Assembly (NCBI RefSeq): GCF_006345805.1
Contig: NC_042999.1
Location: 162,440,001-162,504,000 of the forward strand
Source: Octopus sinensis
Taxonomy: Eukaryota
Length of the DNA: 64,000 bases
Reading direction: 5' to 3'
The translations under genes were made by a program, and so were the position numbers. The notes below the pieces were generated by a model that saw only the letters and a program-made list of their open reading frames with translations, had not been told where the DNA came from and did no database searches. Below are positions 29,734 to 64,000 of this stretch, piece after piece (the first letter of the stretch is position 1; each line of letters starts with the position of its first letter).

Positions 29734-30719
29734 ACGACTGCAGATAATAGTTGAGAGATCTGTATCTCAAAAGAAGATGCGTGATTTGCTTGTTAGTATG
29801 AGATTATGTGCAGAGTATAAGTTGGGTTGTTATCTGTGGATCTTAAGAAAAAGGAAAGAGAATTGTCTAGCAGATTCAGTATGAATACTTGAAATGGAGT
29901 GGTGTCCACTAAAGGTATGTACAGATTAAATGGTAGTGTTAAACTGAAGAGCATGACATGCCAACCAAAAACTAGAGAGAATACCCTTCTATTCTCTATA
30001 AAACAAGATAACATCAGGTGAATGGTGACCTAGAGTCAAACAAAATATTGCCACAAATAATCACAACCAATCCACACCAGCAAAGAAAAAGCAGATATAG
30101 AAACAATGTATGTGTGTGTGTGTGTGTGTGTGTGTGCATGTATGTATGCACACACAAACACACACATGATAAACATTTATTGACTGGGGCAGATGCAGCC
30201 ACTATCAAATAGAAAGTATCCAATATATAACATATTTATATTATATAGAGAGCACAATTACACATAGATGCCGCACGCTAGGAGGGACTTTTAAAGTCAA
30301 AACTACCAAAATAAACAAATTGTACCGAATGCAATCTTCAAAGCGAGTCATTTAAAAACAGAATTTAGTTACATATCACCTGTGATTTCGCAATCAATGC
30401 AGTATATGCATTTTATGTTCTTCAGTGCAACAAACTCAAGATATATATGAATGAACAAGAACAACATACCAGACGAGCAACCGCAGTGTCCATCGCAGCA
30501 TATAGGAATGTACATCCCTACATATCTATGTAAATGGCGGGCTATTCGAATTGCATTTCGGTAACAACGTGCTTACTCGGAACAAAAATTCAGTATTGAA
30601 TTGTTCCGGTGAAAAATATAAATTTAAAAATAGGATAAAATCTTCATAAGAAATTATCAAGTAGTTAGCGTGAAAAAACATAGGTAAGAATGAAAGGGAT
30701 TTATTTATATGACATCCCT

Positions 30720-31800
30720 ATGGGAGCCAGTGACTCTGCTGAAGCTACTGACCTCGTTGGACTCTACCTACTTAACAGTCTCCATTAACCATTTCCCAAC
30801 ATCTCCGGTGAGCTATAGAGAGATGGCACTGTTCACTATCCAAAATTCTAGTAAGCAGATAACGAAACAAACTAAAAAAAGATGAAGAAGCTTCTTTAAA
30901 AACGTTGGCTTCAGTATCTCTTTCTAAAATGTCAAAACCACTAATTTCTTCGATGTTACCCTGGACTGACAAAACCAAACCTACCCATACCACAAACCTG
31001 GGGAAAGCCTCCTCCTCTGCTAATCAAGATTTATTCGATCAACATGCTGAATATTACAACTGTGCCCAACAACATGCTGGATATTAACACTTAATTGAAT
31101 ATATACCCATGTGGGACATTCATCTCTCAACTAAACCCAGAGCAAAAACTAGTTCCTAACCCCCATATTATAAATGTAACCCCCTACTCCACCCCTCCAA
31201 TACCCATCCAAATATTGGAGTAGCAAATGACCTAACAAACGACCCACCCCCTACCTGATAATCCCTAATCCCATATACGCCACAACCAACCAAAACACAC
31301 CAACATACACCTCCAAAACCCTATCTCCATCTAGGTAACCCTCCCTAATCAAATTAAATGAATTAGACACAAGACGTCATCTAGTTCCACCCCACCCATC
31401 GCCCTTTATGTCCAGACTTGAGTACCCAAACTCTTCTTCTCCCTACTCAAAAAATATTTCCCTAAATCTAACCCCCTTAGAAAAATATTTAATCCCCAAT
31501 CTATAAAGTTGTCCTACTCTACCACTACCAACAACACTGCTGGAGTTACCCAAAATCTTAACAAGAAACTCTAAAATCCATCAATGGTTAACCTCCACCC
31601 TAGTAAATTAATTCAACATAACTTCTAACTCCATGCATATAAACCCAATGCACCAACTGACCCCCTTAACAAAACTAACCCCTGATAACTACAATTATAA
31701 TGCCAAAGCTAACACCTGACTCTTAAATGCACCACAATGCCCAAATATACTTCCTGTCATAATAGTGAACATCCCAGAGGATAAACAATAATCATACAAT
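30720..31800 (+). mobile_element. Highly degraded PLE fragment
   Basis: ~31452-31535 translates KYFPKSNPLRKIFNPQSIKLSYSTT, homologous to KHF...YRIFNRRTLKVSYS in PLE2; outer limits uncertain. Confidence 0.5.
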
Positions 31801-39026: not shown

Positions 39027-39173
39027 GATGTATTGAGGTAATATGCAGTTAAAAATGAGTTATATATATATCTCAAGGCGTCGTCAGAGATTATAAAAAT
39101 ATAATTATAAAAATATACAAATGCAGATATAAATATGAAACAAAATACACACACACAAGAGTATATATATATA

Positions 39174-39212
<39 letters not shown>

Positions 39213-39623
39213 TGTATATACATATATATATATACATGTATATAAGTGTATATACATATATATACATGTATATAAGTATATATATAATAATATACATACA
39301 CATAAGGTTACAGATAATCAAATATATATACTGGAGTATACATATACATCCACATCAATGGGTACATATACAAAGTCCAAAGTTCATTACAATACATTAC
39401 CAAAACTATTAATATTATTATTATCATAAATAATACCAATACTGGAATATGTGCATTCTGCTATTCACAATACATAGAAGATGGAAAATACCACATAAAA
39501 TATAGTATAATATAATGGACTTTGTATATGTACCCATTGATGTGGATGTATATGTATACTCCAGTATATATATTTGATTATCTGTAACCTTATGTGTATG
39601 TATATTATTATATATATATTTAT

Positions 39624-39681
<58 letters not shown>

Positions 39682-39960
39682 TCTTGTGTATGTTTATTTT
39701 GTTTCATATTTATATTTGCATTTGTATATTTTTATAACTATACTTTATAATCTCTGATGAGGCCTTGAGATATATATATATATAAGTAACTCATTTTTAA
39801 CTGCATATTACCTCAATACATCTGACTAATATAGGCACAATGAGATACCTTTATCTACAGGCTGAAACAGCTGTAAGATCCATTTTATGTGTAATATTTT
39901 TAAGGTATTATCTTACTTATTGATGTATATTGTTTTATTCTGTTGGATTTGGATGTTCCT
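39027..39960. mobile_element. ORF-less PLE-like remnant with inverted repeat arms
   Basis: 39027-39379 is the reverse complement of 39516-39822; right arm continues through a hammerhead motif. Confidence 0.7.
39750..39879 (+). ncRNA. Type I hammerhead-like motif with 93-nt insert in stem-loop II
   Basis: atct CTGATGA ggcct [93 nt] aggct GAAA cagctg TA agat. Confidence 0.72.
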
Positions 39961-40043
39961 ATTTAAGTAGTTAATAAATAATATGAATTGGTATTATCTG
40001 TAAGTCGATGATTGAAAGGAATCTGTTCCTCCATTTTCTTATT

Positions 40044-40093
<50 letters not shown>

Positions 40094-40865
40094 CATATAT
40101 ATATATATACATCTATATATATAAAACTGAGAATGTGTGTCTGTCTGTCTGTCTGTGTGTTTCCCTAAAACTTGAGAACTACACAACCAATTTCATTCAA
40201 ATTTTACACATGCCTTACTTAGGGTCCATGTAGTTTCATGGGCAAAAAAAAGTTCAAATTCTTGCCTAGGGCGAGCCCATAGCAATATCATATCTTCTTC
40301 ACTATTTCAGTATTACGTGTTAAAAGTGAAACAAAAACATTTCTGTATTTTATGTCAGATACTTTCACTTTAACAATAAAAATTAGAGATAATAATAACA
40401 ATTGAATTATATGTAGTAAGTAATAATTAAAATCAAACTAAAGTATAATATAATCGTAACATAACAAAAGTAAAAATAGCAATTGGTATAAAATTGCATC
40501 AATGACTTGAACTTGAATAAGTGGTTTAACATGAATGGGAATAAATTAAAGATAAAATTAGCATACAGAAATGGAATAGTCCAGTTGGACTATTATACAT
40601 AAAGGACTATAGCTTCAACTGCGTACTGCTTTTTGATTCACAGTAAGGTTTGTTGTTATTATTATTATTACTGTTTAACTATTGTTATCACGATTGTTGG
40701 TTCCGCGTAAGGGAAACGTTGTTGTGTTGCATTTGTTAAATAATTGTAAACTGTAACCCTCTCCCTTTGGGAGGAGTTTTGGTTATTGTTTAAAAATTTA
40801 ATTGTGTCCCTGTTTGGGTAAATTGACAATATTTTCACCGTTTACACAGAAGCATTTTTGTTAGA

Positions 40866-44678: not shown

Positions 44679-45139
44679 TACTAATTACTAATTAATTAAT
44701 AAATTTTATCCTTTATTATTATGGATAATATAATTCTCTCCCTGATAATAAACTACAGATTTTTCTGTAGGAATTTGTTGCTCTATAACACGCGTGGGTG
44801 GGTGACGGAGAATACGAAGTCTCGTTCGTATGTTTTGAATTCGTTAGTACTGGATGTTGGAAGTGGTTTGTCTGATGTTACTTTAAACCTTTCCGTAAGC
44901 CCAATGAAAAGCTATCGTATATTAGCAAAGATTCGAACCATCCACCAGTTATCCTTAGGAACTTAGTCAGCAATGTAGGTAGAAGAATATCTTCAATTTC
45001 TTCGGACGAGGCAGCATTCCATAATGCTGCATCTTATTACGATAGCGCATTAAAGAATAATGGATTCTCTGAGAAGATCCAGTACAACCAGTTTAATGCT
45101 GGTAATAATGCTGCACGAAGAACTAGGACCAGGAAAGTT

Positions 45140-45817
45140 TTGTGGTTCAACCCGGCTTTCAATTTTACCGTAAAGACTAATATAGGTAAGGAATTTTTGA
45201 GATTAGTCTCTAAGCATTTTAAGCAGGGTCATAAATTTTATAGGATATTTAATAGAAGAACCCTGAAGGTTAGCTATTCTTGTTGCAGAAATTTCGCCTC
45301 TTACATTAGCCAGCATAATAGGAAGCTAATTGAGATTAGACATGGTGCCGAGCCCATTAAGAAATGCAATTTCAAAAACGAAAGCTCCTGTCCGTTAGAA
45401 GGGAAATGTCTAGTGAAAGGAGTAGTTTATAGAGCCAAGGTCCAAGTAGAAGGCTCATCGGAATACAAGACATACACAGGGGCTTCAGAAAATTCATTTA
45501 AAACACGATTTTATTCTCATAAAAATTCATTTAAATACCCAGAGAATAGGAAGAGGACCAGCCTAGCGAAATATGTCTGGGAACTAAAAGAAAAGGAAAC
45601 CCCACCTTTCAACGTGACATGGAGCATTCTGGACAGAGCGGCACCATACAGGCATGGAGCATACAAAAATAATTTTAAGTGCAAACTTTGCCTATTAGAA
45701 AAAATGTACATTTTATTCAAAGACAATAATTCTTTGAATCAAAGAAGTGAGCTAATGAACTTATGTAGGCACGCGGCTAAATTTAAAATGTCGAATATAA
45801 ATATACCATATGGATAG
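45140..45817 (+). pseudogene. PLE linker + GIY-YIG endonuclease (open C-terminal 225 aa of a truncated ORF)
   Basis: WFNP, CPLEGKCL, GVVY...TYTG..FKTRFYSH, CKLCLLEK, LNQRSEL..CRH. Confidence 0.88.
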
Positions 45818-46926
45818 AGTATATATTTTGTATTTTTGATTTTTGATTTTGACTCTTGAACTAGTATGTAAACGCTACGATGGATTTTGTTCCACGCTAT
45901 GCAGATTTTAATCCGTATAGCAAAGTCTTATATTTCCACATATACATTAGGAAAAACCTTCGACTTTGTTTATTTCATGTTATTGTATTGTATAGGATTA
46001 CCTTGATTATTTATAGATGATCCAAAATAGGGTGTTATATTTTATTTTATATGTCTTTTGTATATATTTTTATTTTTTATTATTGCACTCATTTTTTTTT
46101 AAAAAAGCAATGTTGTCAAAAATTAGAATTTTGATATAAGTATGTGTATAGCCATGGATATGTATTTGTAAGCATGCGTATCTGTGTATGTGTAAGTGAG
46201 CGTATGTTTGTGCTTAAGCACACATATACACGACTGTATGTGTATGTATCCATTCGAACTTGTGTATTTGTATACTTGTCTCCATATATGTCAATAATGC
46301 CGTTACACAGCTTGTGTACATAATTTTTTCTTATTTCGTTTTTTTCCCCACCCCTCCTTTTTCTTTTTTCCTTCCCCCTTCTTCGTCCCTTTTTCTCTCT
46401 CTTCCTTTCTTTCGTTTTTTTCTCCAACTGATACTGATGCAACTTTACGTCCCCTTACTCAGTATATGAGAATCGCTACATAGATGATTTTAACTTGCGT
46501 GCGAGATGGATTGCGTGCATATATGTACGCATGCATTTATGTGTATATTTTAGATTTATATTTATGTCTGTATATGTATGGTGTTTGCATGCATCCCTCT
46601 GTGTATGTTGATATATATATGTACACTTTAATTTAAATATGTATTGCAGTGTAATATTTATAATAGGTTTTAATTTCTATGCTTTAATTATACTTTCCTC
46701 ATTAACGTCAATATGTATTTTATTCAATGTAAGGTTTTTTTCCTCGAATTTTATAATTTTTATAAGTTTTTATATATATATACATATATTTTTGACCTTT
46801 TTGTTTATCGCTCGAAGATTGACCGTTTTTTCTAAAGGGCCAATCAAACAAGTCCATTTTTTTTAAAGGTGTAGCGTTTGTAAGAGTCTAGATTGAATTG
46901 ATATATCGGTTCCATTCTAGCAAAAA

Positions 46927-46964
46927 CTGTCTGATGAACGGCAACGAGAAACTCAGAGTAACAG
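46927..46964 (+). ncRNA. Type I hammerhead-like motif in PLE2 3' repeat
   Basis: ctgt CTGATGA a cg-gcaa-cg a GAAA ctc-a-gag TA acag; helix I extendable by caaaa/ttttg. Confidence 0.75.
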
Positions 46965-47068
46965 ATTTTGTTGAATTTTCTGCTGCTTAAAATAAAGCAT
47001 ATTACTCTACCACTGGTATTTGAGTACTCTTTTTTCCACCTTGTTTCACATTTATGTGTTTACTCCGG

Positions 47069-47102
<34 letters not shown>

Positions 47103-58432: not shown

Positions 58433-58471
<39 letters not shown>

Positions 58472-58491
58472 CAAATAAGAAAATGGAGAAG

Positions 58492-58614
58492 CACATGACA
58501 AGGCCTAGCGCTATATATAAGTACCTCATTTTCAACTGCCTATTACCTCTATACACTTGACTAATATAAGCAGAATGAGATGCTTTTATCTATAGGCTGA
58601 AACAGCTGTAAGTG
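58492..58614 (+). ncRNA. Degenerate copy of the long-stem-II hammerhead
   Basis: cac ATGACAA ggcct [insert homologous to 39766-39858] aggct GAAA cagctg TA agtg; CUGANGA core mutated. Confidence 0.5.
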
Positions 58615-58768
58615 ATTTTAATAATTTATATTCATGTTTTTTAATAATTGCTTTTATTCATATTTTATATGCATAGAATAATATACTATATGTATGTATG
58701 TTATTATTTACCCGCTCTCCTATGCTTCGTGCCGTTTCCCCTACGTATGTCGTTGTCTTACATAGGTA

Positions 58769-59852: not shown

Positions 59853-60504
59853 TAGATATATATATACACGCACACACATACATAATATATATACACACAT
59901 ATGTAAAAAGGTTGAATTAGATTCATCCTTTAATTTGGGCTTTTCCAAAAAAAGATTTCTGATATAGACACTTCATATTTTGCTGGTAGCTTACTGGCGT
60001 AAAAATTGCGAATAGGAAAATAATACTTGTATATGGTGTGTTGTGAATTTATGGAAAGAAATCCCATAAAACTCAACAATTTTGATAAAAACGAAGAGAA
60101 GATGTTAAAATATATAAGAGAATTTTAATTCATGCAGACGATCGTTTCATACAGCGATATAAAAATCATGCAAATTCATGGTTGAATTGCATTAATTAAA
60201 TTAATTAGATTAAATTAAATCAATTATATATCAATGTACTCTTCAGTGCAAGAAGTATACAGAAATTTTTTTTTACAAAGGAATTGAGAAAGGAAAAAGC
60301 AGAATAGGATCTAAGAGATTCATATTTATCCTTATGAGAAAGGAAGATATGTGTGAGTCCAGTTAGGTATTAACTTAAACTAAAGGCTATAACGGTTATT
60401 TGAAAATATAAGTGAGAGAGGTTTTAGAGATGTTCCCTCTATAGAAGAGTAAGGAGATACGAAATTCTAACTCCAAATAAGTCGTGTAGGGAAAAAATTG
60501 TATA

Positions 60505-62910: not shown

Positions 62911-62947
62911 TGTTACTCTGAGTTTCTCGTTGCCGTTCATCAGACAG
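62911..62947 (-). ncRNA. Type I hammerhead-like motif (PLE2 family)
   Basis: Core identical to 46927-46963. Confidence 0.72.
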
Positions 62948-64000
62948 TTTTTGCTAGAATGGAACATATATATAAATTCAATCTATACTCTTACAAACGC
63001 TACACCTTTAAAAAGAAATGGACTTGTTTGATTGGCCCTTTAGAAAAAAACGGTCAATCTTCGAGCGATAAACAAAAAGGTCAAAAATATATGTATATAT
63101 ATATAAAAAAACTTATAAAAATTATAAAATTCGAGGAAAAACCGAGGAAAAAACCTATTGCCGTTAATGAAGACAGTACAAATTAATGCATATAAATTAA
63201 ACCTTTTATAAATACTGCAATACATATTTATATTAAAATCCACATATATATATCAACATACACAAAAGGATGCGCGTAAACGCCATACATACATATACAG
63301 ACGTATGAATATGAATCTAAATTATACACATAAAAGCATGTGTACATATATTCACGCAAACCGTCTCGCACGCAAGCTAAAATTCATCTATGTAGCAATT
63401 CTCATATACTGAGCAAGGAGGGGGAACGAAAGAAAGGGAAAGAGAGAAAAAGGAACGAAAGGGGGGGGGGAACTTGTAGCGATGTTATTGGCATCTATAG
63501 AGGCCAGTATACATACACAAGTTTGAATTGATACATATACATACCGTCGTGTGTATGCGTGCTTAAGCACAAGCATACTTTCACTTACACATACACAGAT
63601 ACGCATGCTTACAAATACATATGCTTTGCTATACACAAACTTATATAAACATTCTAAATTTGACAACATTGCTTTTTTTAAAAAAACATTGCTTTTAAAA
63701 AATGGGCGCATTAATAAAAATATATACGAAAGACATATAAAATAAAATATAACATCCTATTTTGGGTCATTATAAATAATCAAGGTAATATAAATAATCA
63801 AGGTAATCCTATGCAATACAATAACATGAAAACAAAGTTTGTAGGTTTTTCCTAATATATATGTAGAAACAATAAGACTTTGCTATAGATCCGTCGTAGC
63901 GCTTAAGAGTCAAAATCAAAATCAAAAATCAAAATACAAAATATATACTCTATCCATATGGTATATTTATATTCGACATTTTAAATTTAGCCGCGTGCCT
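62911..64000 (-). mobile_element. Second copy of PLE2 (3' UTR and ORF end; runs off window)
   Basis: Reverse complement of ~45767-46963 with scattered differences. Confidence 0.9.

Follow-up and report, generated by a model that had tools for sequence, protein, structure and literature searches.

The window, the whole 64,000-nt stretch of Octopus sinensis DNA that was analysed, holds a type I hammerhead motif in the truncated tail of a Hydra-clade Penelope-like element (PLE), that tail again in inverted orientation and, downstream, a relative of the motif. The features are as follows.

39750..39879, + strand: type I hammerhead motif, its helix II arm 103 nt long (sequence, motif scan)
39750-39753 and 39876-39879, + strand: helix I strands ATCT and AGAT (seen in the sequence)
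39754..39760, + strand: core strand C3-A9, CTGATGA (CUGAUGA in RNA; seen in the sequence)
39761..39863, + strand: helix II arm, in which the basal helix is followed by internal loops and three more helices, as predicted (fold, family pair counts, z-scores)
39761-39765 and 39859-39863, + strand: basal helix II strands GGCCT and AGGCT (seen in the sequence)
39766-39858, + strand: 93-nt insert between the helix II strands, containing a TA run
39864..39875, + strand: GAAA core (39864-39867), 8-nt palindromic helix III and cut triplet
39867-39874, + strand: helix III palindrome ACAGCTGT
39873-39875, + strand: cut triplet GUA, predicted cut after 39875
39516..40046, + strand: forward, 5'-truncated tail of the Hydra-clade PLE, matching L251:6729-7343
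39027..39516, - strand: inverted copy of the same tail, with the 5' half of the ribozyme
58496..58707, + strand: sister-subfamily relative, 5'-truncated inside the core, arm and 3' half present
58462..58496, - strand: inverted 3' end of the sister subfamily, origin of an apparent 'cac' helix I strand

Every part of the 39750-39879 motif named in a preliminary description of this DNA was present where it had been placed, from the core halves with GGCCT/AGGCT and GAAA to the 93 nt, TA run included, that separate the helix II strands. The core C3 U4 G5 A6 N7 G8 A9 / G12 A13 A14 / A15-U16 / H17 (as defined in the available text of PMC3088659) was complete in this copy and intact in 26/30 of its nearest copies. 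All pairs of the three helices around the core, with helix I open, were found in the sequence; GAAA was followed by the palindrome ACAGCUGU and then by the GUA triplet, and the long arm replaced loop II. A mechanical type I scan with long arms allowed gave two matches on both strands of the 64-kb window (39750-39879 and one at 60246, minus strand), and the 18-nt 3' half had at least 1559 exact copies in the 2.72-Gb genome searched, against none for the reversed control; the motif is therefore not a chance match. Rfam gave no match at gathering score over the window, finding neither long-armed hammerhead, and over 39600-40100 it missed the hammerhead at E ≤ 10 and returned TA-repeat noise alone. 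The core search of Craig et al. (PMC8557442, available text) used a spacer of 7-17 nt, and the earlier expectation that length-limited searches would miss such a hammerhead was thus correct.

Almost all genomic copies carry the long arm. When the pattern was split in two, a gap of 75-105 nt between the parts gave at least 1559 genomic copies and a gap of 4-34 nt a single one, confirming that the insert is kept family-wide; this total and that for the 3' half came from different patterns with different match lists, and we take their equality as coincidence and read both as at least 1559. The sole short-armed copy (L116:1501-1545) is a natural arm deletion that retains the core and a paired helix II; the deletion runs between short direct repeats, away from splice-like sites.

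Ninety-four distinct copies were sampled by position from one contig. Two fixed 3' ends ~170 nt apart were common to family copies, with variable 5' ends; the first end motif occurred alone in 47 copies, both in 18, the second alone in 3 and neither in 26. As regards the RT-binding site proposed for the insert, these ends are likely RT start points and lie outside the arm, the first ~170 nt and the second ~340 nt downstream from the cut site. The forward tail at 39516-40046 stops at the first of them, beside a TA microsatellite, while the inverted tail stops at the top of the arm and lacks the later ribozyme parts; together (39027-40046) they sit between TA runs. The 5' ends were spread, 30 of the 94 falling in the 110 nt immediately upstream of the 3' half and 22 in the 90 nt beyond. 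No clear peak marked RT stalling at the arm, and TA runs blur the distribution further out.

The hammerhead belongs to the non-coding tail (terminal repeat) of a Hydra-clade PLE. Walking upstream led to a locus (L214) with a PLE-type RT frame running into the same tail. The parent was then sought by protein search, and the first 20 RT loci were fetched; the long-armed motif lay downstream of the RT on the same strand in 12 (L259 and L263 by DNA match alone) and was not seen in 8 within the span fetched. One locus, L249, carries an intact frame in a partial tandem with a unit of 5602 nt: repeat, 960-codon open frame, 2.1-kb UTR and repeat, both repeats containing a ribozyme at a spacing of 5602 nt. 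The single frame, with its first Met ~500 nt downstream of the cut site, encodes RT followed, at the C terminus, by a GIY-YIG endonuclease (EN), recognized by motifs and by likeness to the other PLE pieces in the window. Its protein has RWR, DKT, CxCX5C, CxxC and CxH motifs, with RWK in place of RWR in L254, L258 and L262; the Hydra clade is marked by RWK, DKT, a CxCX5C linker, CxxC and CxH (PMC8557442, available text). In a further locus (L251), RT and EN are accompanied by a ribozyme with 94% identity to the 39750 copy. The layout traits of Hydra elements were also found, namely partial-tandem terminal repeats, inverted truncated copies, a tail and TA targets. Membership of the clade is assigned on motifs and layout, the RT tree holding elements of this genome alone, and Pfam and PDB searches gave no significant match to the Hydra-like proteins. 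Long Asn-rich linkers stand between RT and EN in the frames of L214 (2793-3248), L217 and L249, and in L214 the frame continues into what is non-coding tail in other copies. That the element might be a SINE or retrozyme of 365 nt was considered and rejected because copies continue upstream into RT and EN; rather than the short non-coding tandem monomers of retrozymes, each with a hammerhead, the copies are dispersed, variably 5'-truncated and coding upstream.

The insert is best read, from predicted folds, as a long imperfect hairpin extending helix II. The idea of a split ribozyme housing a foreign module was not upheld, since the insert folds back and continues helix II. The discontinuous Clec2 hammerhead, reportedly described by Martick et al. 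in 2008, is said to have core parts distant in sequence and to be a host mRNA element. The motif here resembles it in having core parts far apart in sequence, but its spacer is paired and closes helix II, and it is a transposon motif rather than a host mRNA element.

The exact core strand stood upstream in 47/94 copies, from which two with a core from unrelated flank and one duplicate were dropped to leave 44. Their arms measured 88-110 nt (mode, 97 nt), most folding as a single rod. The inner arm had z < -2 in 28/44 copies (median, -2.55, against 40 dinucleotide shuffles), compared with 0/44 and 5/44 for equal-length downstream pieces; the reverse strand of the arm reached this in 21/44, as expected of a hairpin. 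Covariation was examined in a sequence-only MAFFT alignment of 45 rows (the 44 copies and the window copy). A hand-drawn arm structure, which was taken from folds of these same copies and is thereby favoured over slid controls, paired in 79.3% of cells, against 75.8% when shuffled (reached in 0/500) and 32-38% when slid. Cells changed on both sides numbered 76, against 50.5 when shuffled (0/500), and were present in each arm helix, although they represent few subfamily events, each counted many times; alternate pairs included G-C 19 / A-U 13, C-G 28 / U-A 11 and A-U 23 / G-C 13. The proposed check by folding and covariation thus succeeded in part: pairing was kept with compensatory changes, but two of five pairing measures failed to beat shuffles (two-sided-change pairs, 13 versus 15.1; pair types, 36 versus 40.4), and RNAalifold, given that alignment, recovered the base of helix II and not the inner arm. 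Sequence identity was 0.67 in the arm and 0.70 and 0.70 in the flanks (250 random pairs, 42 copies), internal loops differed between subfamilies, and the TA run varied in length and was absent from several subfamilies. Pairing, rather than sequence, is conserved in the arm.

In the intact-frame family, whose arm was found via the protein and independently of the pattern, the arm is predicted as an 85-nt rod (-38 kcal/mol; helix II P about 1.0), with G10.1-C11.1 and a GUC site; it is homologous to the 39750 arm, in a comparison that excluded L288, and shorter at the tip. The 39750 copy folds weakly (z -1.2), with helix II at P 0.0 even when the inverted arm is left out of the fold, and P exceeded 0.5 in 0/26 intact copies of its subfamily (predicted monomer). 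Its helix II pair next to the core is G-U, the U being present in 99 of the 100 subfamily copies listed.

Arm length was set against an RT tree of 36 pieces from this genome, restricted to pieces of at least 200 aa (L280 falling below). Arms were 85-100 nt wherever the motif was found in a 19-row RT clade (support 100/100) and 16-19, 39, 54-55 and 58 nt in other RT lineages of this genome, and arm length is thus graded. In the HHR table of PMC8557442, as available, Hydra arms are ~10-25 nt, and the longest, ~50 nt, belong to spike-moss elements. The present lineage therefore shows that helix II can be longer than published Hydra arms by a factor of four to eight with core and pairing still kept, and standard descriptors and Rfam would consequently undercount such motifs (at least 1559 here). 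No arm of this size was found described for an animal PLE in the available texts, among which subscription journals are thinly covered, and supplements of PMC4209133, PMC3088659 and bioRxiv 10.64898/2026.07.22.740005 may list such arms. The host element, the ribozyme type and the insertion layout are already described, and the arm length of 85-110 nt was not found in print within that literature; what is added here is an intact Hydra parent, a controlled family-level structure test, a graded arm series and the dismissal of the helix I, intron and switch claims. Downstream of a Hydra frame (L260:4750-5500), degenerate hammerhead-like units (arm, 30 nt) were also seen repeated in tandem.

A diverged relative had been reported from position 58492. 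It does keep the insert (87 nt; 89% identity over 101 nt), having lost C3 and changed G8 to A. The compensatory helix I (cac/gtg) ascribed to it proved illusory: family homology begins at 58496, inside the core, where an inverted family 3' end is joined, so that the apparent covariation is a junction artefact. ATCT precedes the core in the majority of the 30 nearest relatives of this copy.

Helix III consists of two pairs round a self-complementary loop, forming the 8-nt palindrome (predicted self-duplex, -11.1 kcal/mol), the middle of which changes between the lineages traced by protein search (AGCT, ACGT, ATAT, AATT, GATC) yet stays self-complementary. Helix I has two well-kept pairs (43/45 and 44/45) and outer pairs kept in 31/41 and 28/43. 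With a two-pair helix III round such a loop and a two-pair helix I, a lone copy would be expected to cut poorly. In the available texts, metazoan PLE hammerheads show weak, dimer-dependent cleavage (PMC4209133), and cleavage of a PLE hammerhead was protein-assisted in vitro and dispensable for insertion (PMC11167929). By analogy, cutting would likely need either two copies in a tandem transcript or a protein, as for PAc. The 39750 copy, being predicted to misfold, likely does not cut. Read-through of the cut site was seen in 184/197 subfamily copies. Among the first 100 listed there were six exceptions (five point changes and one start at the site), and that single start is near the background of ~0.3 ends per 100 copies per base; genomic-copy starts were not in excess at the predicted cut site. 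Uncut RNA is therefore the usual template. One copy, beside a TA run (L312:1501-1520), begins no more than one base from the predicted cut site.

We consider it probable, overall, that the motif lies in a Hydra PLE terminal repeat, within a truncated tail accompanied by its inverted copy; that the 93-nt insert is a long hairpin, as predicted, lengthening helix II; that such hammerheads cut only as helix III dimers or with protein; and that this copy goes uncut. The arm may have grown by small steps in this Hydra lineage, with selection acting on its pairing, which would hold the two halves of the core together, and not on its own sequence. Cutting would serve the processing of tandem transcripts and would not be needed for insertion.

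Accounts of the insert as promoter, intron or switch gained no family-wide support. Extremely unlikely is a role as promoter DNA within the terminal repeat, a promoter having been among the earlier suggestions: an internal promoter is cited in PMC8557442 (available text) for the terminal repeat of Penelope, and the insert of the 39750 subfamily has a TATA-like run, but the run is found in 12/45 rows, others having C-rich or T-rich words, and what the arm conserves is pairing, its sequence being no better kept than the flanks. A 75-nt spliceosomal intron within the insert (GT at 39786, AG at 39859-39860), whose splicing would shorten helix II, is also very unlikely. The 39750 copy does contain donor-, branch- and acceptor-like words, GT occurs in 28/30 and CAG in 26/30 of the nearest copies, and a Penelope intron overlaps its hammerhead (PMC4209133), lies in the 5' UTR and measures 75 bp (PMC8557442; both as available). 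AG, however, is present in just 40/94 sampled copies and together with GT in 13/45 rows, the intact-frame family has neither, the GT is base-paired within the arm, and the sole short genomic copy (L116) is not cut at these sites. Contigs from four runs guessed to be RNA cover the stretch in pieces with no joint listed, and such contigs show presence, not absence. The cut triplet and next bases are donor-like, GU(A/C)AG, across the whole lineage (L249:765-780 and 1270-1295), the AG after the cut site being also explained by helix I. An acceptor-like AG stands just before the first Met in two of four subfamily junctions (L249 type and L262; absent from L254 and L258).

Two accounts give the arm an active part in cleavage. 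As a folding switch, which had also been proposed, its 3' strand would refold with GAAA, the palindrome and the cut site into an 'off' hairpin, and cutting would await a partner or a protein. This hairpin is predicted at P 0.96 in the 39750 copy and at P > 0.5 in 16/44 sampled copies, and the U that permits it is the state of the subfamily (99/100 listed copies). Its pairing is no better than shuffled (82.2% versus 82.0%; 212/500), it was absent in 5/5 tested copies of the 85-86 nt family, and it follows from the palindrome and the strand shared by helix I and the arm. Lacking covariation and missing from the intact-frame family, the hairpin is read as a by-product within one subfamily, and we judge the switch unlikely. 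A more tentative matter is whether the arm is a needed part, either a handle for the protein of the element or a docking partner that replaces the loop I-loop II contact and offsets the 2-bp helix I. The preponderance of long copies (at least 1559 to 1), a length held at 85-110 nt over the well-supported RT clade, and a middle helix homologous between the 39750 subfamily and the intact-frame family point that way, as does a PLE hammerhead that required the protein of its element to cut in vitro (PMC11167929, available text). On the other side, other Hydra lineages here amplified with 16-58 nt arms, published Hydra arms are ~10-25 nt (available text), the arm shows no greater sequence conservation than the flanks, its internal loops vary between subfamilies, and scarce short copies would be equally expected if master elements simply had a long arm; the needed arm is thus possible but rather improbable. 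More doubtful is a fuller scheme, in which the 85-110 nt arm would be a selected RNA domain, gripped by the protein or docking on the stubby helix I, that makes cleavage dependent on protein or a second copy; separately, GU(A/C)AG at the cut site would double as a 5' UTR intron donor, the RNA going to translation once spliced or, if left intact, to copying.

The preferred reading, a helix II lengthened by a paired arm in a Hydra PLE, was compared with known systems through the available parts of the papers cited. Like the Hydra-clade hammerheads of Craig et al. 2021 (PMC8557442), the motif has a type I core in a terminal repeat and a short palindromic helix III, and its element shares TA-microsatellite targets, inverted 5'-truncated copies, a one-sided tail and protein motifs; unlike them, it has an arm of 85-110 nt (about 10-25 nt there), a 5.6-kb unit with a 2.1-kb 3' UTR (listed elements mostly < 3 kb) and a tail of ~170 nt (30-40 there). 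With the metazoan PLE hammerheads of Cervera and de la Pena 2014 (PMC4209133) it has in common a dimer-type helix III, a short helix I (2 bp in D. virilis), a bulged, longer-than-usual helix II, and mostly solo truncated copies with opposite-strand pairs. It differs from them in its predicted multi-helix rod, against a helix II of 6-8 bp, and in having no family-wide intron in the arm, where the Penelope intron ends at helix I. PAc (Poseidon) of Anolis (Frangieh et al. 2024, PMC11167929) likewise has a ribozyme followed downstream by two fixed 3' ends, and genomic copies templated by uncut RNA. Its frame, however, starts in stem II, whereas the first Met here is ~500 nt past the cut site, and protein-assisted cleavage was demonstrated there, the present motif being known from sequence. 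Animal non-LTR retrozymes (PMC7229834; bioRxiv 10.64898/2026.07.22.740005) are similar in being AT-rich non-coding repeats that derive from PLEs and bear a type I hammerhead, but they are tandem monomers of 300-400 nt rather than dispersed truncated tails of a coding element.

Hammerheads of Penelope-like elements are a known motif with an unsettled function. The natural arm series (16, 39, 55, 58, 85 and 100 nt) is tied to RT lineages and, with one intact-frame family and one arm-deleted copy, makes a ready set for asking whether arm, partner copy or protein controls cutting. If the arm is merely tolerated, the finding is an annotation note.

Further PLE sequence lies elsewhere in the window. 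A second, unrelated long-armed hammerhead is present at 60127-60254 on the minus strand, with a 91-nt AT-rich arm (fold z, -2.6), the palindrome ACGATCGT and a GUC site; it had 618 candidates, with at least 45 matches listed, and 25 loci of ~3 kb gave no Hydra protein match. Another PLE remnant spans 44876-47070, with an endonuclease-end frame at 44876-45817 and an ordinary short hammerhead with a 10-nt arm at 46927-46964, and an inverted copy of its UTR is found at 62911-64000. More broken Hydra-like RT or EN pieces lie at 1372-2682 and 30705-31108.
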